64,000 bases of DNA from a virus. Lineage: Duplodnaviria; Heunggongvirae; Uroviricota; Caudoviricetes. Positions 23,210-56,681 of the stretch are shown in pieces. Both the position numbers and the translations under genes were made by a program. How positions within the stretch are numbered: position 1 is the stretch's first letter; every line of letters starts with the position of its first letter. The stretch lies in the IMG/VR virus record IMGVR_UViG_3300031555_004037; one strand, 5' to 3'. The notes beneath the pieces were generated by a model. It saw nothing but the letters and a program-made list of their open reading frames with translations. It was not told the DNA's origin and ran no database searches.

Positions 23210-23233
23210 TTTTAATTCCCTTGTAATTTTTTG

Positions 23234-23262
23234 TTTACAAGGGAGTTTTTATGTGTTATACT
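23234..23262 (+). promoter_or_regulatory. SigA-type promoter (cca)
   Basis: TTTACA-N17-TATACT, TG extension. Confidence 0.8.
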
Positions 23263-23299
23263 ATCAATAGTTGATAAAGAAATTAAAGGAGTTGATATT

Positions 23300-24640
23300 A
23301 TGAAAAATATAGAAATGGCAAAGAAAATTGCAGAGAGAGTACATAATCACGGTGGACAGACTTATTTTGTTGGTGGATATGTTAGAGATAAAATTCTCGG
23401 AAAGGAAAACAAGGATATAGATATTGAGGTACATAATATTATTCCAAAGGTACTTAAATCTATTCTCTCCGAACTTGGAGAGATTAAGACTCAAGGTGCT
23501 TCTTTTGGTGTATACAATATTAAGGGATATGATATTGATATTGCACAGCCAAGAAGTGAAATAGCAACAGGTAGGGGTCATAAAGACTTTGAAGTATCTG
23601 TTGACCCTTTTATTGGAACTGAAAAGGCATCAATGAGAAGAGATTTCACTATAAACGCACTTATGGAAGATGTTATTACTGGTGAAATAGTAGACCATTT
23701 TAACGGAGTGCAAGATATTGAAAATGGTATTATTAGACATATTAACGATACTACTTTTAAGGAAGACGCTCTTCGTGTTTTTCGTGCAGCACAATTTGCA
23801 GCAAGATTTGGTTTTGATATTGCTGACGAAACTATTGATATTATGTCAACTATGGATGTATCAACACTTTCAAGAGAAAGAGTATATGAAGAAATGAAAA
23901 AGGCAATGATTAAAGCACCTATGCCATCAACTTTCTTTAATGTACTTAAAATGGCTAATCAACTTGATGTATGGTTTCCAGAAGTAAAGGCACTTATTGG
24001 TTGTCCACAAAATCCAAAATATCATCCAGAGGGAGATGTTTGGAATCATACAATGATGGTTATTGATAATGCTGCTACTATGAGAGATAGTGTTTCTAAT
24101 GCAGAGTTTTTTATGATTGCTGCACTTTGTCACGATTTTGGTAAGCCAGTTGCTACTTGTATTACTGAAAAGGGTGTACAGAGTATTAAGCACGATATTA
24201 TGGGTGTACCTATTGCTAAAGAATTTATGGCTAGAATTAACAATAATGTAGACCTTAATAAGTATGTACTTAATATGGTAGAAAATCATATGGCTCTTCA
24301 TCAGTCTTTCAATAATAAGTCTAAAATTAAGTCTACAAATGCTAAATTTGATATTAGTATTTGTCCTAGTGATATGGTAATGCTTACTATTGCTGATTCT
24401 ATGGGTAAAACTAATACTGAAAATGAAGAGGCAGAATGGATTACTGAAAGATTTAATATTTATAAGGAAACTATAAGTAAACCAGAAGTAATGGGTAAAG
24501 ACCTTATGGCTATGGGTATTATGCCTGGTCCAATTTATAGTGAAATTCTTAAAAATACACATAAGCAACATCTTTCAGGTAGAGATAAGGAATCGGTACT
24601 TAAAGATATTGCTACTAGATATGGTAAAAAGGGGGTATAA
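23300..24640 (+). CDS. cca: CCA-adding tRNA nucleotidyltransferase with HD domain
   Basis: VGGYVRD, KDIDIE, RRDFTINAL, EDALRVFRA, HPEGDVWNHT, HDFGK. Confidence 0.92.
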   Translation: MKNIEMAKKIAERVHNHGGQTYFVGGYVRDKILGKENKDIDIEVHNIIPKVLKSILSELGEIKTQGASFGVYNIKGYDIDIAQPRSEIATGRGHKDFEVSVDPFIGTEKASMRRDFTINALMEDVITGEIVDHFNGVQDIENGIIRHINDTTFKEDALRVFRAAQFAARFGFDIADETIDIMSTMDVSTLSRERVYEEMKKAMIKAPMPSTFFNVLKMANQLDVWFPEVKALIGCPQNPKYHPEGDVWNHTMMVIDNAATMRDSVSNAEFFMIAALCHDFGKPVATCITEKGVQSIKHDIMGVPIAKEFMARINNNVDLNKYVLNMVENHMALHQSFNNKSKIKSTNAKFDISICPSDMVMLTIADSMGKTNTENEEAEWITERFNIYKETISKPEVMGKDLMAMGIMPGPIYSEILKNTHKQHLSGRDKESVLKDIATRYGKKGV

Positions 24641-32311: not shown

Positions 32312-33820
32312 ATGTTACCTATTCGATTTTTACCATCAGTTAGTGATAAGATAAAAGATAAAGAATTGGCTGATAAATTAAAAGCAGATAAGAAAAAGAC
32401 TAGATTAAGTAAAAGTAATGTTGTTGATATGATTGAGTTAATTCGTCAAGATGTAGAAAAGTCATTGGGAAAATATGCAGACCAATATCGTTGTATTACT
32501 ACTGTAGAAGAATTACAAGAATATATCAATAAAGCAAATGAACACGGATATATTGCTATTGATACAGAAACAACAGGACTTAATCCTATGGTTGATAAAA
32601 TTGTAGGACTTTGTTTGTATTTTCCTGGTGAAAAGGGTGTATATGTACCTATCAATCATTTAGATTATTTTACAGGTATTAGATTAGATAATCAGTTATC
32701 CGAAGAAGATATTAAACCTATTTTAGAACAGTTGACAGCAAGAATTATTATGCACAATGCACAGTTTGATATTAGAGTTATAAAACATACTATAAAGGTT
32801 AAATTAAAGTGTTGGTGGGATACGCAGATTGCGTCAACTTTATTAGACGAAAATGAATCACATAGACTTAAAGATTTACATAGTAAATATGTGAGTGGGG
32901 AAGAAGAAAAATCATTTAGTGATTTATTTGGTAATACAACATTTACAGATATTCCTATTGAATATGCTTATTTATATGCAGTTCACGATGCAGTTGATAC
33001 TTTTGATTTATTTATGTATCAAAGACCTTTATTAAACAATAAGAGAGAACAAGAAGACGATAGAGATATGTATTGGTTATTTACTAATGTTGAAATGCCT
33101 ATGGTTGATGTTATTGTAGCATTAGAAGATGTTGGTGTTTCTGTAGATGTTGAATATCTTGATACATTAAAAGAGAAATATCATAATAATTTAAAAGTAG
33201 CATTAGATAAATGTTATTCAGAATTAGAATTATATAAAGATAAAATTGATAAGTATAATGCTACTCATTATGAAAAGCCACTTAAAACACCATTAAATAT
33301 TGGTTCTCCGTCACAATTAGCAATTTTATTCTATGATATTCTTAAAGCAAAAGAATTAAAGGGTAAAGGTGCTAGAAGTACCGATGTTGATATGATGAAT
33401 TATTGGAAAGAAAAATATCCTATTGCAAAGGCTATTTTGGAATATAGAGCAGCACAGAAAATTGCATCTACTTATATAGATAATATTTATGATATTATTC
33501 ATACTGACGGTAGAGTACATACACATTTTCATTCTAATGGTGCTAAAACAGGTCGTATGAGTTCTAGTGACCCATTAAATTTACAGAATATTCCGTCACA
33601 TAATGAAGATATTCGTAAAATGTTTGTTGGACAAACTACTTATAGAGATGTAGATAAGCGTGACGATGGTGCTTATATTTTCGATAGACAAGAAGAAATT
33701 GAATTATCAGACGGAACTTGGCAATGGGTTGAATTGATTAAAGTTGGAGATAAATTGTCTAGTGGGGAAATTGTTAAAGCAGTTAAAATTAAAGACTTTA
33801 AAGTATTATTAGGTGTTTAA
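32312..33820 (+). CDS. polA: Split family-A DNA polymerase, N-terminal part (3'-5' exonuclease, thumb)
   Basis: IDTETTGL, MHNAQFD, YAVHDA, NIGSPSQL, TGRMSSSDPLNLQNIP. Confidence 0.92.
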   Translation: MLPIRFLPSVSDKIKDKELADKLKADKKKTRLSKSNVVDMIELIRQDVEKSLGKYADQYRCITTVEELQEYINKANEHGYIAIDTETTGLNPMVDKIVGLCLYFPGEKGVYVPINHLDYFTGIRLDNQLSEEDIKPILEQLTARIIMHNAQFDIRVIKHTIKVKLKCWWDTQIASTLLDENESHRLKDLHSKYVSGEEEKSFSDLFGNTTFTDIPIEYAYLYAVHDAVDTFDLFMYQRPLLNNKREQEDDRDMYWLFTNVEMPMVDVIVALEDVGVSVDVEYLDTLKEKYHNNLKVALDKCYSELELYKDKIDKYNATHYEKPLKTPLNIGSPSQLAILFYDILKAKELKGKGARSTDVDMMNYWKEKYPIAKAILEYRAAQKIASTYIDNIYDIIHTDGRVHTHFHSNGAKTGRMSSSDPLNLQNIPSHNEDIRKMFVGQTTYRDVDKRDDGAYIFDRQEEIELSDGTWQWVELIKVGDKLSSGEIVKAVKIKDFKVLLGV

Positions 33821-33838
33821 ATTTAGGGGGTAATAAAA

Positions 33839-34114
33839 ATGTTTGATAATGATTTAATTAAAACTGATGAACAACCTGATTGGGATGAATATGATATTGA
33901 TTGGAAAGAAATGGATTGGGATAAATATGAAGTAAAATCAAGAAATAAAAATATCAAATTATCCATAATTATTGCTTTAATAATTTGTAATATCTTATTA
34001 CTTTGTCAGTTATTATTTTATGTATCTACACAAAATAACTTAAATTCAGAAAATTATATCATAGATGATACTTATTCTGTAAGTTATATTGAAAAGAATG
34101 TGAAGAATAATTAA
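33839..34114 (+). CDS. Small membrane protein between the polymerase halves
   Basis: DW-rich acidic N-terminus, one TM segment. Confidence 0.6.
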   Translation: MFDNDLIKTDEQPDWDEYDIDWKEMDWDKYEVKSRNKNIKLSIIIALIICNILLLCQLLFYVSTQNNLNSENYIIDDTYSVSYIEKNVKNN

Positions 34115-34128
34115 GAAAGGAGATATAT

Positions 34129-35226
34129 ATGATTAAGGCAAGAACACGAAGAATTATACAAGGTGCTGACTATAGTGCCCAAGAGCCTAGAGTGTTATCA
34201 ATGCTTTGTGGTGACGAGGGTATGTTACAAGCATATAGAGATGGAAAAGATTTATATGTAGAAATTGCTGCTATTGCTATGCACTTAAATTATAATGAAT
34301 GTTTAGAGCATTTTCCAAAGGGAACACCTATTAAAAATGTAGATGGCAAATGGTATTATGCTTTACATAAAGAAACAAATATGGTTGCCCCTAAATGTGA
34401 TTATAGTGATGTAAATGTTGAAGATTATGATTATGATAAATTAGCAGATGGAGAAACTGATACTTTTAAAGACGGAAAAGAGCGTAGAGGACAAGCAAAG
34501 AAAATTCTGCTTGGTATTATGTATGGTCGTGGGGAAAATTCTATTGCAGAACAATTAGGTTGTGATGTAGAAGAGGCAAGAGATATTAAAAATAATGTTT
34601 ATGACGCATTTCCAAAGATTAAGGTATTTGAAAGAGATTCTCAACTTATGGTTAAAAATTTAGGATATGTAACTACTTTATGGGGTAGAAAAAGAAGATT
34701 ACCTAATTATAATTTACCACCATTTACATTCTACTATTTAGACAACTATGGAAATATTAGAAGAGATACCTCTGTACCTAATGATATTAAAGAAAAATTA
34801 ACAAATAAATTAAATACAATGTTTTGGAAATCTCGACTTAATTTTATTGAAGAACTTAAAATTAAAGAAAAGATTTTAGTTATTGATAATGGAAATAAGA
34901 TTGCTGATGCTAGTAGACAGATTATCAATTCAAGAGTACAAGGTAGTTCTGCTGATATGAGTAAATTAGCACTTATTAAAATTCATAATGACGAAGAATT
35001 AAGTAATCGTGGTGTAAGAACAATTATTCCTGTTCACGATGAAATTCTTATTGAAACACCATTAAGATATGCTAGATATGTTAAAAAGAGATTTGCCGAA
35101 GATATGGAAACTGCTGCCAAGCCTAAATTAACTATTCCTGTATGTTGTGATGTTGTTTCAGCAGAAAGATGGTATGGAGAAGAACTTGAATTGAATGAAA
35201 TTTTAAGTGATTTGCCAGAGGTATAA
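34129..35226 (+). CDS. polA: Split family-A DNA polymerase, C-terminal part (motifs A, B, C)
   Basis: ADYSAQEPR, KKILLGIMYG, VQGSSAD, VHDEIL; own AAGGAG SD. Confidence 0.92.
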   Translation: MIKARTRRIIQGADYSAQEPRVLSMLCGDEGMLQAYRDGKDLYVEIAAIAMHLNYNECLEHFPKGTPIKNVDGKWYYALHKETNMVAPKCDYSDVNVEDYDYDKLADGETDTFKDGKERRGQAKKILLGIMYGRGENSIAEQLGCDVEEARDIKNNVYDAFPKIKVFERDSQLMVKNLGYVTTLWGRKRRLPNYNLPPFTFYYLDNYGNIRRDTSVPNDIKEKLTNKLNTMFWKSRLNFIEELKIKEKILVIDNGNKIADASRQIINSRVQGSSADMSKLALIKIHNDEELSNRGVRTIIPVHDEILIETPLRYARYVKKRFAEDMETAAKPKLTIPVCCDVVSAERWYGEELELNEILSDLPEV

Positions 35227-45273: not shown

Positions 45274-45347
45274 TGCGGGATGACGAGTAATGGATGCTCA
45301 CCAGGCTCATAACCTGGGATATGTGGGTTCGATTCCCACTCCCGCTA
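45274..45347 (+). tRNA. tRNA-fMet-like (CAT)
   Basis: Unpaired 1-72, GCGGGA/TCCCGC acceptor. Confidence 0.85.
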
Positions 45348-45376
45348 CTAAAAATTTTATAATTGGAGGTAATACT

Positions 45377-46222
45377 TTGAAATCAAAAAAAGAGTTTAAG
45401 AGTTTTTTCAAAACAGTTGGTGGAAATGAGGGTAATAAATGTCATTATCCTACAAGATTAGACACTTATGGTTGTGGTTGCAGTCACGATTGTTCATACT
45501 GTTATGCAAAATCACTTCTTGATTTTAGACATTTATGGAATCCAGAAGACCCTGCTATTGCTGATATTGAAAAAATTCGTAAAAAAATTTCCAAATTACC
45601 AAAAGATATGGTAGTTCGTTTAGGTGGAATGACAGATTGTTTTCAACCTATTGAAAAAACACATCGAGTTACATACGAAACCATTAAGGCATTGAATGAA
45701 AATGGTATTTCTTATTTAATTGTAACCAAGAGTGCTATTATTGCAGACGAAGAATATCTTGAAATTTTGGATAAGGATTTGGCACATATTCAGATTACAG
45801 TTACAACAACTGATGACGAATTATCAAAAACTTATGAAAAGGCAAGTGTTCCTAGTGAGCGTATTAAGGCTATTGAAAAACTTCAAGAAATGGGATTTGA
45901 TGTTACTTTAAGATTATCTCCATTTATTCCAGAATATGTAGACCTTTCCATTATAAATAATGTAAAGTGCGATAAGATTTTGGTAGAGTTTTTAAGAGTT
46001 AATACTTGGATTCAGAAATGGTTTAATATTGATTATTCTGATTATACAGTAAAGCAGAGTGGTTATAGACATTTACCATTAGAAAAGAAAAAGGAATACA
46101 TATCTAAAATTACAGGATATAAAGAAATGACGGTTTGTGAAGACGAAAGTGACGCTTATGAATATTGGAAAGAACACTTTAATCATAATCCTAATGATTG
46201 TTGTAATTTAAGAAAAGTATAA
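45377..46222 (+). CDS. Radical SAM protein (spore photoproduct lyase-like)
   Basis: CSHDCSYC, VRLGGMTD; TTG start after GGAGGT (the ORF-track start lies in a tRNA). Confidence 0.8.
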   Translation: MKSKKEFKSFFKTVGGNEGNKCHYPTRLDTYGCGCSHDCSYCYAKSLLDFRHLWNPEDPAIADIEKIRKKISKLPKDMVVRLGGMTDCFQPIEKTHRVTYETIKALNENGISYLIVTKSAIIADEEYLEILDKDLAHIQITVTTTDDELSKTYEKASVPSERIKAIEKLQEMGFDVTLRLSPFIPEYVDLSIINNVKCDKILVEFLRVNTWIQKWFNIDYSDYTVKQSGYRHLPLEKKKEYISKITGYKEMTVCEDESDAYEYWKEHFNHNPNDCCNLRKV

Positions 46223-46316
46223 ATTTACATAGACATAAATTAAAATGCTTATAATGTTTATGTCGATAAAATAGTTTACCAACATTCTATCTAAAAGTTG
46301 GTTAGCATATATTTAT

Positions 46317-46388
46317 TCTCATATAGCTCAATGGTAGAGCACACGACTGTTAATCGTGGGGTTGTAGGTTCGAGTCCTACTGTGAGAG
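46317..46388 (+). tRNA. tRNA-Asn(GTT)
   Basis: CACGA-CT GTT AA-TCGTG. Confidence 0.93.
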
Positions 46389-46430
46389 TTGAAACACTTA
46401 ATTAAATACCTTCATTAGTGTTTTTTAGTA

Positions 46431-46562
46431 TAAATACTTTAATATAAGATTAAGAATTTATATGACGTAGACCAACACGGACATATAAGTTACTTATATT
46501 AGAAGAAATTTAGCGATTTCAACATTCCAAGAGTAGAAGTTGGTAAGAGGAATGAGTATTTA
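46431..46562 (+). ncRNA. Candidate structured spacer RNA
   Basis: TAAATACTT/GAGTATTTA closing, AATATAAG/CTTATATT, CATTCC/GGAATG. Confidence 0.45.
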
Positions 46563-46573
46563 TACAAAATTTT

Positions 46574-46646
46574 GCACCGTTGGACGAATGGTTTAAGTTG
46601 CTACCCCCTCAAGGTAGAGATATGAGTTCAATTCTCATACGGTGTA
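46574..46646 (+). tRNA. tRNA-Glu(CTC), C33 variant
   Basis: CTACC-CC CTC AA-GGTAG. Confidence 0.8.
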
Positions 46647-46648
46647 CT

Positions 46649-46720
46649 GTGGCTGTAGTTTAATGGCTAGAACATCAGATTGTGGCTCTGAAAATGTGAG
46701 TTCAATTCTCATCGGTCACA
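46649..46720 (+). tRNA. tRNA-His(GTG), no encoded G-1, A73
   Basis: TCAGA-TT GTG GC-TCTGA. Confidence 0.9.
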
Positions 46721-46728
46721 TTCATAAT

Positions 46729-46799
46729 GACCCTATGTTCCAATGGTAAGAAGAAGGTCTGCAAAACCTTAAATATGGGTTCAACTCCCATTGGGGTCT
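46729..46799 (+). tRNA. tRNA-Cys(GCA)
   Basis: AAGGT-CT GCA AA-ACCTT, U73. Confidence 0.92.
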
Positions 46800-46804
46800 T
46801 TAGA

Positions 46805-46998
46805 GTTGAGTTACTCAAGTGGTTGAAGAGGCAAATATCCTTAAAAGGACTTTGTAGAAAGTTTAATACATATTTTTTGTTATATAGTAAAAATGATAAT
46901 TGACGAATTTGATTTTGGAACAGTAATAAAACTATAATGAAGTACAAATTATAGACAATATTATTAACTTTGCGAGGGTTCAAATCCCCCACTCAACT
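46805..46998 (+). ncRNA. Expanded tRNA-like RNA (Ser-type D-arm, 133-nt insert)
   Basis: GTTGAGT/ACTCAAC acceptor, D-arm, T-arm, GCAAA/TTTGC closing the insert. Confidence 0.75.
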
Positions 46999-47007
46999 TA
47001 TCAATAT

Positions 47008-47090
47008 CGGTAGGTATGCCTAGCGGCGAGGGCAGCAGACTGTAAATCTGTCACAAGGAAACACCGTTGGTTCGAGTCCAACTCTACCGA
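47008..47090 (+). tRNA. tRNA-Tyr(GTA)
   Basis: GCAGA-CT GTA AA-TCTGT, variable arm. Confidence 0.92.
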
Positions 47091-47139
47091 CTATGATACT
47101 GTCAAACTAATAGAATTTATTCAAGACTGTATCTAATAT

Positions 47140-47211
47140 GGCTGTATGGTCTAGTGGTTATGACGCTACCCTGTCACGGTAGAAACACGGGTTCGACTCC
47201 CGTTATGGTCG
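47140..47211 (+). tRNA. tRNA-Asp(GTC)
   Basis: CTACC-CT GTC AC-GGTAG. Confidence 0.93.
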
Positions 47212-47218
47212 CTTTTAT

Positions 47219-47333: not shown

Positions 47334-47371
47334 TGGTTCTTTAAATATTAGTTTAACAATAAATTACATTT

Positions 47372-47443
47372 GGGTTTATAACTTAATGGAAGAGTAGTTG
47401 TTTTGAAAGCAAATGGTTAGAGGTTCAAGTCCTCTTAAATCTA
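47372..47443 (+). tRNA. Atypical tRNA, TGA anticodon without variable arm
   Basis: TTGT-TT TGA AA-GCAA, 5-nt variable loop, A73. Confidence 0.6.
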
Positions 47444-47668
47444 TGCGTGGTTATCCGAACAAATAAGAGCAACCATAAAGGCAAAAAGGCTCGATGTGTG
47501 GTTGACTGACCGAAAGTTATTACATAGAATTAAGACGTTGAGTGAGATGGAGGGCACACTGTAGGCAATAGTCCAAGCATTGACAGGACAATGACGGATT
47601 GATTAATAGGGATTCCTGATTAACTATTATATCAGCTGGAGAAGATTGGTTCGATTCCAATAAGCGTT
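47444..47668 (+). ncRNA. GC-enriched ~225-nt RNA ending in a T-arm
   Basis: ATTGG-TTCGATT-CCAAT; hairpins; ATAGTCC motif. Confidence 0.45.
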
Positions 47669-47679
47669 TTAAGATATAT

Positions 47680-51069: not shown

Positions 51070-51218
51070 GGCTCATTTTCTCAATATATGTAATTGAAGC
51101 TAGAATAGATTATGTATGTTAAATAGGAACGAGATGGTAAATATTGAAAACTTATAGTTGTCTAGCCAACTATGACAGAGTATATATTTATTTGGTGGTT
51201 CAAATCCACAATGAGTCG
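51070..51218 (+). ncRNA. Expanded tRNA-like RNA with internal pseudoknot
   Basis: GGCTCAT/ATGAGTC acceptor, T-arm, GCTAGA pairs with loop TCTAGC. Confidence 0.65.
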
Positions 51219-51225
51219 CTTATAT

Positions 51226-51299
51226 GCCCTTATGATGGAACTGGAATACATACTAGATTTAGAATCTAGGTTTTGTGGGTTCGACCCCCACTAGGGGTA
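51226..51299 (+). tRNA. tRNA-Leu(TAG) with short variable loop
   Basis: CTAGA-TT TAG AA-TCTAG; Leu-type D-loop. Confidence 0.85.
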
Positions 51300-51318
51300 C
51301 TAAAAGGGGGAAATTATT

Positions 51319-54272: not shown

Positions 54273-54367
54273 ACCGAAATGATGGGGAATTGGAATACCC
54301 AAGAAGAAACTTTATTAGTTTTGGACGCACTTATATGTGTATGTAGGTTCAAGTCCTACTTTCGGTA
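54273..54367 (+). tRNA. Atypical Leu-type tRNA body with TAT-centred loop and extra linker
   Basis: ACCGAAA/TTTCGGT, GGG/CCC D-stem, GAAAC-TTTATTA-GTTTT, variable arm. Confidence 0.55.
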
Positions 54368-56451: not shown

Positions 56452-56602
56452 GGGTATTAAGTGCAACGAAATATAGATAAATTCTAGGATAGTTTATAAA
56501 GTAGTATTTGGAACGCACAAGATATATAGCAAAGTAATAATTCTTCCTAGTAGATTATTATGATTATGATATATTGAGCAAGTTCAAATCTTGTAATACT
56601 CT
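56452..56602 (+). ncRNA. Expanded tRNA-like RNA with enlarged D- and anticodon arms
   Basis: GGGTATT/AATACTC, GTGC/GCAC, GATATAT/ATATATT, GCAAG-TTCAAAT-CTTGT; loops CTAGGA/TCCTAG. Confidence 0.75.
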
Positions 56603-56607
56603 CTTAT

Positions 56608-56681
56608 GGGTGTGTAAAGATAATTGGAAATCGCTCGGACTCCAAATCCGTAGTACGAGGGTTCGATTCCTTCCTCACCTG
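56608..56681 (+). tRNA. tRNA-Trp(CCA)
   Basis: CGGA-CT CCA AA-TCCG, G73. Confidence 0.9.

Follow-up and report, generated by a model that had tools for sequence, protein, structure and literature searches.

A tRNA-Ser-derived element with a 133-nt insert in the tRNA array of a huge phage is a candidate gene for a non-decoding RNA

The window, that is the whole 64-kb stretch of DNA analysed here, has a G+C content of about 26% and a strong, constant GC skew. Its genes include a split family A DNA polymerase, a CCA-adding enzyme (23231-24640), a sigma-70 factor, Mom, SmpB, a YqeY-like protein, a metallophosphatase and a GGDEF protein. Downstream of the CCA-adding enzyme gene, between about 38.6 and 59.3 kb, lies an array of 33 tRNA genes and a tmRNA called by ARAGORN, each of them on the plus strand, to which Rfam adds one tRNA (56608-56681) and a ROOL RNA; an encoded CCA is absent from those phage tRNA genes that were inspected. 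Proteins identical or near-identical to those of the window are carried by contigs of 317-324 kb from ENA, JGI and Logan assemblies, and the next-best protein relatives belong to Clostridia and Lachnospiraceae, so that the source is a huge phage of about 320 kb whose host is probably a gut or rumen Firmicute.

Within the array, the tRNA-Cys (46729-46799) and tRNA-Tyr (47008-47091) genes are separated by a 208-nt gap, which is filled almost wholly by the element at 46805-46998, hereafter E1. It begins 5 nt after tRNA-Cys, ends 9 nt before tRNA-Tyr and displays the following features:

46805-46811, plus strand: 5' strand of the acceptor, GTTGAGT, with 7 of 7 Watson-Crick pairs to 46991-46997; invariant in five sequences.
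46814-46830, plus strand: class II, serine-type D arm CTC-AAGTGGTTGAA-GAG, identical in word to tRNA-Ser and invariant in relatives.
46831-46835, plus strand: GCAAA, 5' strand of a helix opening the insert, the partner being either the distal TTTGC (46969-46973) or a local TTTGT (46851-46855).
46836-46968, plus strand: AT-rich insert of 133 nt (20% G+C) replacing the anticodon and variable arms.
46838-46849, plus strand: small hairpin TCCT-TAAA-AGGA inside the insert.
46909-46938, plus strand: sigma-70-like promoter match TTGATT-18-TATAAT inside the insert (10 of 12 matches; a lead only).
46932-46954, plus strand: 7-bp hairpin CTATAAT-GAAGTACAA-ATTATAG with the palindrome GTAC in its loop.
46969-46973, plus strand: TTTGC, possible 3' strand of a closing helix, abutting the T stem directly without a variable loop.
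46974-46990, plus strand: T arm GAGGG-TTCAAAT-CCCCC with an A.C mismatch at the second pair.
46991-46998, plus strand: 3' strand of the acceptor, ACTCAAC, followed by discriminator T; no encoded CCA.

The upper body of a tRNA is therefore present in E1 as an acceptor, a D arm and a T arm with the conserved elbow nucleotides. The D arm consists of a 3-bp stem (CTC 46814-46816, GAG 46828-46830) and an 11-nt loop (AAGTGGTTGAA, 46817-46827), and the T arm of GAGGG (46974-46978), TTCAAAT (46979-46985) and CCCCC (46986-46990). A previous reading made from the sequence only had described the perfect acceptor, this D arm, and an AT-rich insert of 133 nt with two hairpins, all of which we located as described; it had also described the T arm, which is indeed present, but had passed over the A.C mismatch at its second pair. 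Such an arrangement is above chance, since a strict scan of both strands of the 64 kb, which required the T loop TTCRANY, a T stem of 5 bp with no more than one mismatch and, within 40-400 nt, a perfect acceptor of 7 bp, matched nothing besides the annotated tRNAs and tmRNA and four units of the array that carry no annotation; the minus strand had zero matches.

E1 with the same 133-nt insert was found in four ENA/Logan records from other samples (L091-L094), and these together with the window make up three haplotypes that are about 96-97% identical over E1. The earlier reading had considered that relatives might turn out to hold a normal tRNA with a recent random insertion; every relative covering the locus keeps the 133-nt insert.

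The origin of the frame was traced through its D arm. The 21-nt word at 46812-46832, TACTCAAGTGGTTGAAGAGGC, occurs exactly in at least 120 representative bacterial genomes, mostly of Clostridia, Bacilli, Erysipelotrichaceae and Mollicutes with some candidate-phyla bacteria, and all 106 ARAGORN calls that fall on it are tRNA-Ser (GCT in 65, GGA in 28, CGA in 11 and TGA in 2), which bears out the proposal of a Ser-type body in a Firmicute-rich set of genomes. On the T-arm side, GCGAGGGTTCAAATCCC is common to E1 and tRNA-Ser(GCT), and the closest bacterial sequences read GCGAGGGTTCAAATCCCTC where E1 has GCGAGGGTTCAAATCCCCC; the T arm itself matches the GAGGG-TTCAAAT-CCCTC of bacterial tRNA-Ser(GCT) at 16 of its 17 bases. 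What E1 retains corresponds to tRNA-Ser positions 8-27 and to the whole 3' part beginning with the final two bases of the variable region, while the long variable arm, a serine-like acceptor and G73 are missing. Four pairs of the acceptor GTTGAGT/ACTCAAC are changed relative to the usual serine GGAGAAG/CTTCTCC, with all seven still pairing, and the discriminator is T in E1 and G in most bacterial tRNA-Ser sharing the D arm. Judged by these identities, E1 is shown to derive from a Firmicute-type tRNA-Ser. Charging with serine would nevertheless not be expected, because the variable arm is gone and both the acceptor and the discriminator T are unlike those of tRNA-Ser.

We then considered decoding. 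A canonical anticodon arm (5-bp stem, 7-nt loop, U33, purine at 37) is found in no 17-nt stretch of E1; when one mismatch was allowed, five stretches of the insert qualified against 2.8 by chance, none of them convincing. The loop of one insert hairpin faintly resembles the Leu(UAA) anticodon loop, with G at the would-be U33 in every relative. As 133 AT-rich bases replace the decoding arm, codon reading by E1 is almost certainly excluded.

The sequence-only reading had left two options, a non-decoding tRNA mimic, which fits these observations, and a tRNA with an insert that does not splice itself. The second would make E1 an intron-bearing tRNA gene relying on another mode of removal, and ARAGORN does offer one such model, Ser(AGA) with a 112-nt intron, the sole model of E1 that it returned. 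This model appeared at an 80% threshold, whereas ARAGORN with introns allowed makes no call on E1 at its default threshold. The model has A34, C37 and an unpaired variable region of 11 nt instead of a long arm, and in L091 positions 37-38 read TG instead of CA, which places T at 37. Intron-bearing tRNA genes do exist in phage arrays: the 270-nt tRNA gene of another large phage (L082:3002-3272), which we used as a positive control, has a clear anticodon stem on both sides of its insert and matches Rfam Intron_gpI (RF00028) at 60 bits (E=5e-15). Like this gene and bacterial tRNA-Leu(UAA), E1 is a tRNA frame interrupted by a long insert, but group I intron genes keep the flanking anticodon stem and the Rfam signal and E1 has neither; searched against Rfam at E<=10, it gave only noise, with no tRNA, group I or II intron, ribozyme or Y-RNA-like match, and the claim that no group I/II core is visible stands. 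We know of no group I intron as short as 112-133 nt. Bacterial tRNA introns are group I introns located in the anticodon loop (bioRxiv 10.1101/2020.01.27.920355). In view of these data, we regard a spliced tRNA as very improbable.

Several further candidates were tried and rejected. Like tmRNA, E1 has an acceptor and T arm at its ends and a long internal domain, and the phage encodes its own tmRNA and SmpB; however, the third pair of E1 is T-A and not the G3.U70 of tmRNA, ARAGORN makes no tmRNA call, and the Rfam tmRNA model reaches 6.1 bits on the T arm only. A Y-RNA-like RNA and a self-cleaving ribozyme were both set aside for want of an Rfam match at E<=10. As for a coding insert, the sole small frame (14 codons, 46893-46937) gains a stop in L092 and L093, and a 96-codon frame on the minus strand (46702-46992) overlaps tRNA-Cys and is frameshifted by an extra C in the same two records. 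Finally, the insert has no second copy in the window, as a repeat or mobile element might.

The structure of the insert was examined by folding and by comparison of the relatives. GCAAA and TTTGC do flank the insert, as had been proposed, but the helix that they were said to close is not established: RNAfold pairs GCAAA with the local TTTGT at 46851-46855 rather than with the distal TTTGC, and both pairings are invariant in relatives, so that conservation does not discriminate between them. Compared with shuffled sequences, the fold energy gives z=-1.0 for the whole of E1 and z=-0.9 for the insert, and no compensatory change was observed in the insert helices across the three haplotypes. Within the hairpin at 46838-46849, a T-to-G change has removed the inner pair in all relatives and one C-G becomes U.G in L091 and L094; among the insert pairings in relatives, one A.C also becomes A-U. 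The hairpin at 46932-46954 is invariant in five of five sequences, which is neutral as to pairing.

Conservation was then quantified in an alignment of window positions 46300-47215 with L091 and L092, the sample comprising three haplotypes that share 93-99% DNA identity over the aligned segments:

E1 frame: 0 of 61 sites variable; one extra C in the C run of the T stem (L092, L093).
E1 insert: 9 of 133 sites variable; no indels.
Two flanking spacers: 30 of 232 sites variable; 13 gapped columns.
Flanking tRNAs Glu, His, Cys, Tyr and Asp: 3 of 376 sites variable; no indels.

By one-sided Fisher tests, the frame is less variable than the spacers (p=0.0006) and than the insert (p=0.03), and the insert is less variable than the spacers (p=0.046) and more variable than the tRNAs (p=0.0005). 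The homolog alignment that had been called for earlier thus yields a frame that is invariant but for the extra C, and an insert that varies at nine sites and lacks compensatory change. Because none of its 61 sites varies, against 30 of 232 in the spacers, the frame is shown by this comparison to be conserved like a true tRNA and under selection; the insert may be constrained weakly at best, and possibly in length mainly.

These figures bear directly on a second explanation, according to which E1 would be a disabled tRNA-Ser whose middle was swapped for intergenic-type phage DNA by illegitimate recombination or insertion. Its RNA would be functionless, and its frame either young or kept since cutting at this unit by RNase P and at the 3' end is needed to release tRNA-Cys and tRNA-Tyr. 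Consistent with this, the insert is spacer-like in composition (20% versus 25% G+C) and carries neither a fold signal nor covariation, and it diverges as much as the array-wide non-coding average or more (5.3% versus 5.2% in L091, 3.8% versus 2.6% in L092). The T-stem mismatch and indel polymorphism, the restriction of E1 to one lineage and the turnover of array units, of which one described below is absent from L091-L095, point in the same direction. On the other hand, the invariant frame is embedded in local spacers of which 13% of sites vary, the insert is free of indels next to indel-rich spacers, and none of the four acceptor pairs that diverged from the serine consensus has become unpaired. 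The rate of change is no sign of decay in itself, since the ROOL RNA of the same array, which is structured, diverges by 3-4% too, and divergence therefore cannot separate function from decay. We consider a disabled tRNA-Ser plausible, if short of probable.

A third explanation takes the insert as a regulatory module. In one version, it would be a promoter within a dead tRNA gene, serving tRNA-Tyr, tRNA-Asp and genes beyond; the sigma-70-like site matches at 10 of 12 positions and both of its hexamers are unchanged in all haplotypes, but promoter-like sites in the region occur at chance level (5 observed versus 6.6 expected). In the other version, E1 would produce a decoy or sponge RNA that binds a host factor or a defence nuclease with specificity for class II tRNAs. 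Cleavage of class II tRNA-Tyr in its variable loop by defence systems has been reported, as has the use of phage tRNAs against it (PMC13096335). E1 is a class II frame adjoining the phage tRNA-Tyr, which agrees with such a role, but it lacks the variable arm that is reported to be cut. Overall, a regulatory module appears improbable.

Homologues were sought well beyond the strain-level relatives. In IMG/VR, an exact search had 0 matches for the 5' half of E1 (27 nt) and likewise for the 3' half (24 nt), and near and distant DNA searches of the INPHARED phages returned generic tRNA matches, none of them on E1. Anchoring on individual proteins was equally negative: 80 IMG/VR loci anchored on the radical SAM protein are non-syntenic and almost free of tRNAs and hold no E1; the YgjV-like protein anchored no IMG/VR loci, its homologue P0126 (L106) is accompanied by no tRNAs, and short contigs around the YgjV-like gene end before E1; and the SmpB loci L081 and L082 are not syntenic with the window. 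Homologues of the metallophosphatase comprised the strain-level relatives L091-L095 and more distant loci (L096-L105) that are non-syntenic or bacterial. In metagenomes, the pattern CTCAAGTGGTTGAAGAGGCAAA had a single match, in unrelated coding sequence. We also looked for a second serine-type frame with an insert, using a pattern of serine D arm, gap and T loop with gaps of 86-150 nt in IMG/VR and 56-86 nt in GTDB representative genomes. None was found in either set at those gaps: each match proved to be a chance one, an assembly gap, or a tRNA-Ser together with the tRNA next to it. When SPP1 was scanned quickly for a tRNA-frame RNA with our own motif, none was found.

Besides E1, the array holds at least three more long units with a tRNA-like outline:

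51070-51218, plus strand: E2, with an intact 7-bp acceptor and T arm.
54273-54367, plus strand: E4, with an intact 7-bp acceptor and T arm.
56452-56602, plus strand: E3, with an intact 7-bp acceptor and T arm.

All four lie on the same strand of the same array and share a perfect 7-bp acceptor and the T loop TTCAA(A/G)T, and E1, E2 and E3 have in common a long inner arm that stands 0-2 nt from the T stem without a variable loop. E2 and E3 follow a layout in which the D stem encloses about 50 nt ending in GGAAC and the long arm abuts the T stem. They differ from E1, whose D arm is normal, in that the extra sequence lies partly within the D stem, and they carry four apical loops with CTAG at near-identical spacings, while E1 has no CTAG. 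Homology between the inserts of E1, E2 and E3 was rejected, as local alignments were not significant against shuffles. A pattern for E2/E3-like units had 0 matches in IMG/VR. Conservation of E3 and E4 exceeds that of the E1 insert, and no complete E2 unit occurs in L091-L095, so that units of the array are evidently gained and lost. A comparable unit of 124 nt (L098:251-374) is located in another large phage, between tRNA-Gly and tRNA-Ile. The case for E1 is weaker than that for E3, because its insert structure is unproven and no homologue is known outside the lineage. Separately, a relaxed acceptor/T-arm scan, which otherwise returned mostly noise, picked out a possible fifth unit at 47534-47669.

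Among known systems, the closest analogue of E1 is T4 rnaC, also called species 1 RNA (139 nt, NC_000866 70908-71046). T4 rnaC and rnaD, whose biological roles are unknown (PMC3014915), resemble E1 in being longer than a tRNA and lying inside a phage tRNA cluster. The T arm of rnaC is canonical (CCGGG-UUCGAAU-CCCGG), its ends pair with each other in the manner of an acceptor, and its type of layout, namely a place in a tRNA cluster, tRNA-like termini with a T arm, extra length and no anticodon, is found in E1 as well. The likeness is one of layout only, without sequence similarity. With two U.U in its acceptor-like stem, rnaC lacks perfect pairing there, and no D arm of any isotype can be recognised in it, whereas E1 has both intact; conversely, rnaC folds far better than shuffled sequences (z=-4.6) and E1 does not (z=-1.0). 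By this analogy, E1 would be a new serine-type variant of the stable RNAs of tRNA clusters known since T4, its own stability being predicted.

Firmicutes also offer a precedent for a tRNA-derived RNA outside translation, the non-translating pseudo-tRNA tRNA-Other of Bacillus cereus (PMC3399842). E1 shares with it the derivation from a tRNA, the position outside translation and the relation to Firmicutes. tRNA-Other is of tRNA size and has a cloverleaf, unlike E1 with its 133-nt replacement of two arms.

Taken together, we favour, with a probability of about 0.5, the reading that E1 is a gene for a non-decoding, tRNA-framed RNA that would be excised by tRNA-processing enzymes. The array is presumably transcribed as precursors, in which E1 would be co-transcribed with its neighbours, tRNA-Cys and tRNA-Tyr. 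Substrates of RNase P and CCA-adding enzymes are recognised by their intact acceptor/T minihelix and elbow, both of which E1 preserves, so that it should be excised as a unit of about 194 nt with CCA. RNase P would cut at the 5' end and the 3'-end tRNA-processing nucleases at the 3' end, both directed by the tRNA frame, and CCA would be added by a CCA-adding enzyme, of which the phage has its own. The predicted product is a stable RNA of about 194 nt plus CCA, in which the frame would act as a scaffold for processing and stability of the insert.

In favour of such a non-decoding RNA, we count the perfect acceptor and the D and T arms near-identical to those of a working tRNA-Ser, the change of four acceptor pairs on both strands with pairing intact, the conserved frame around an insert that is free of indels and slightly less variable than the spacers, and the missing anticodon arm, with G at the would-be U33 and a pyrimidine at 37. 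We also count the genomic setting, an array with three more units, tmRNA, SmpB, ROOL and a CCA-adding enzyme, as well as the comparable unit at L098:251-374 and the T arm and acceptor-like stem of T4 rnaC. Against it stand the insert, which lacks a fold signal and compensatory change and is far more variable than true tRNAs, the T-stem A.C mismatch with the extra C of L092 and L093, and the sample of three close haplotypes, no homologue having been found outside this phage lineage. Furthermore, conservation of the frame could reflect nothing but a processing signal for the neighbouring tRNAs.

A broader version of the non-decoding reading, which we put forward tentatively and hold to be doubtful as it stands, is that E1 would belong, as a functional representative, to a wide and so far undescribed group of phage RNAs whose tRNA frame is a chassis for non-tRNA cargo. 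There, the frame would recruit RNase P, the 3'-end nucleases and the CCA-adding enzyme and so stabilise the cargo, and the AT-rich cargo of E1 might act in infection, for example as a sponge, decoy or antisense RNA. The other units of the array and T4 rnaC would then be examples of one strategy.

Phage tRNA clusters are usually read only as a help with codon usage or as a means of countering tRNA-cutting defences, and for decades T4 rnaC and rnaD have stood in the catalogues with no role assigned. E1 is also a warning to annotators, since the 208-bp "gap" that separates tRNA-Cys from tRNA-Tyr is not empty. E1 and its neighbouring units suggest that large phages use the tRNA shape beyond decoding; if this is true, such genes would systematically escape tRNA finders.

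Besides E1 (46805-46998), the serine-type tRNA-framed unit, the plus-strand tRNA array contains three further long tRNA-shaped units:

E2, 51070-51218, a 149-nt unit with an acceptor and a T arm
E3, 56452-56602, 151 nt long and sharing its layout with E2
E4, 54273-54367, a 95-nt class-II-like tRNA-shaped unit directly 3' of tRNA-Val

The E2 acceptor is formed by 7 bp including one G.U (GGCTCAT/ATGAGTC) and its T arm reads GGTGG-TTCAAAT-CCACA; 49 nt lie inside a TCTC/GAGA D stem, a long arm follows, CTAG is present in both apical loops, and the fold z is -2.7. The internal spacings of E3 are close to those of E2, in the order CTAG, 22 nt, GGAAC, 31-32 nt, CTAG, 31-32 nt and GTTCAAATC. Among the strain-level relatives (L091-L095) E2 is missing in its entirety, the distance from tRNA-Gly to tRNA-Leu being about 5 nt there. 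E3 is 98.7-100% conserved among relatives, and the G.U at its acceptor pair 2 is replaced by A-U in L091. E4 displays a perfect acceptor (ACCGAAA/TTTCGGT), a perfect T arm and a loop, TTTATTA, that places a pyrimidine at position 37; it is 97-100% conserved among the relatives, and it was called neither by ARAGORN nor by Rfam at gathering score.

Long units whose acceptor and T arm are perfect also occur on two other large phage contigs, at L098:251-374 (124 nt) and at L106:17770-17977 (minus strand, 208 nt), neither of which received an ARAGORN call. L106 yielded zero tRNA calls and has several gaps of 2.6-3.2 kb without genes. As a positive control we used a 270-nt tRNA gene whose anticodon loop is interrupted by a group I intron (L082:3002-3272, IMGVR_UViG_3300010352_001405). 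Rfam gives this gene 60 bits when it is searched alone, while the whole-locus search at gathering score returned no match and ARAGORN made no call.

Bacterial Ser and Leu tRNAs have a long variable arm. ARAGORN called tRNA-Ser(tga) at 47371-47444 and tRNA-Leu(tag) at 51226-51300, both of which, at only 74-75 nt, lack such an arm, and this casts doubt on their amino-acid identity. The 33 tRNAs called in the array (38670-59304) include none for Trp, and one additional tRNA (56608-56681) was called by Rfam and missed by ARAGORN. The 235-nt spacer at 47445-47679 has a G+C content above that of its surroundings. It ends with the T arm ATTGG-TTCGATT-CCAAT, which pairs perfectly, and contains an acceptor candidate with 6 of 7 pairs at 47534-47669. 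L091 and L092 seem to lack this spacer together with the segment around it, which comprises the 74-nt Ser(tga) gene and tRNA-Asn.

Two protein-coding loci of the window were also noted:

32312-35226, a split family A DNA polymerase in two reading frames (32312-33820 and 34129-35226)
45290-46222, a radical SAM gene that separates SmpB from the tRNA block in the window haplotype

The polymerase frames are separated by a gap of 300 nt, in which Rfam found no intron at gathering score. An IS605 OrfB / Cas12f-like (TnpB-type) gene borders the array on its upstream side in L092 (193-1308) and L093 (95-1210); neither the window nor L091 has an equivalent. L091 and L092 lack the radical SAM gene. Relatives of this gene (best 80 of 195 confirmed) are found on IMG/VR contigs that have hardly any tRNAs in the vicinity, including one contig of 504 kb. 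The radical SAM gene looks like a mobile cassette.
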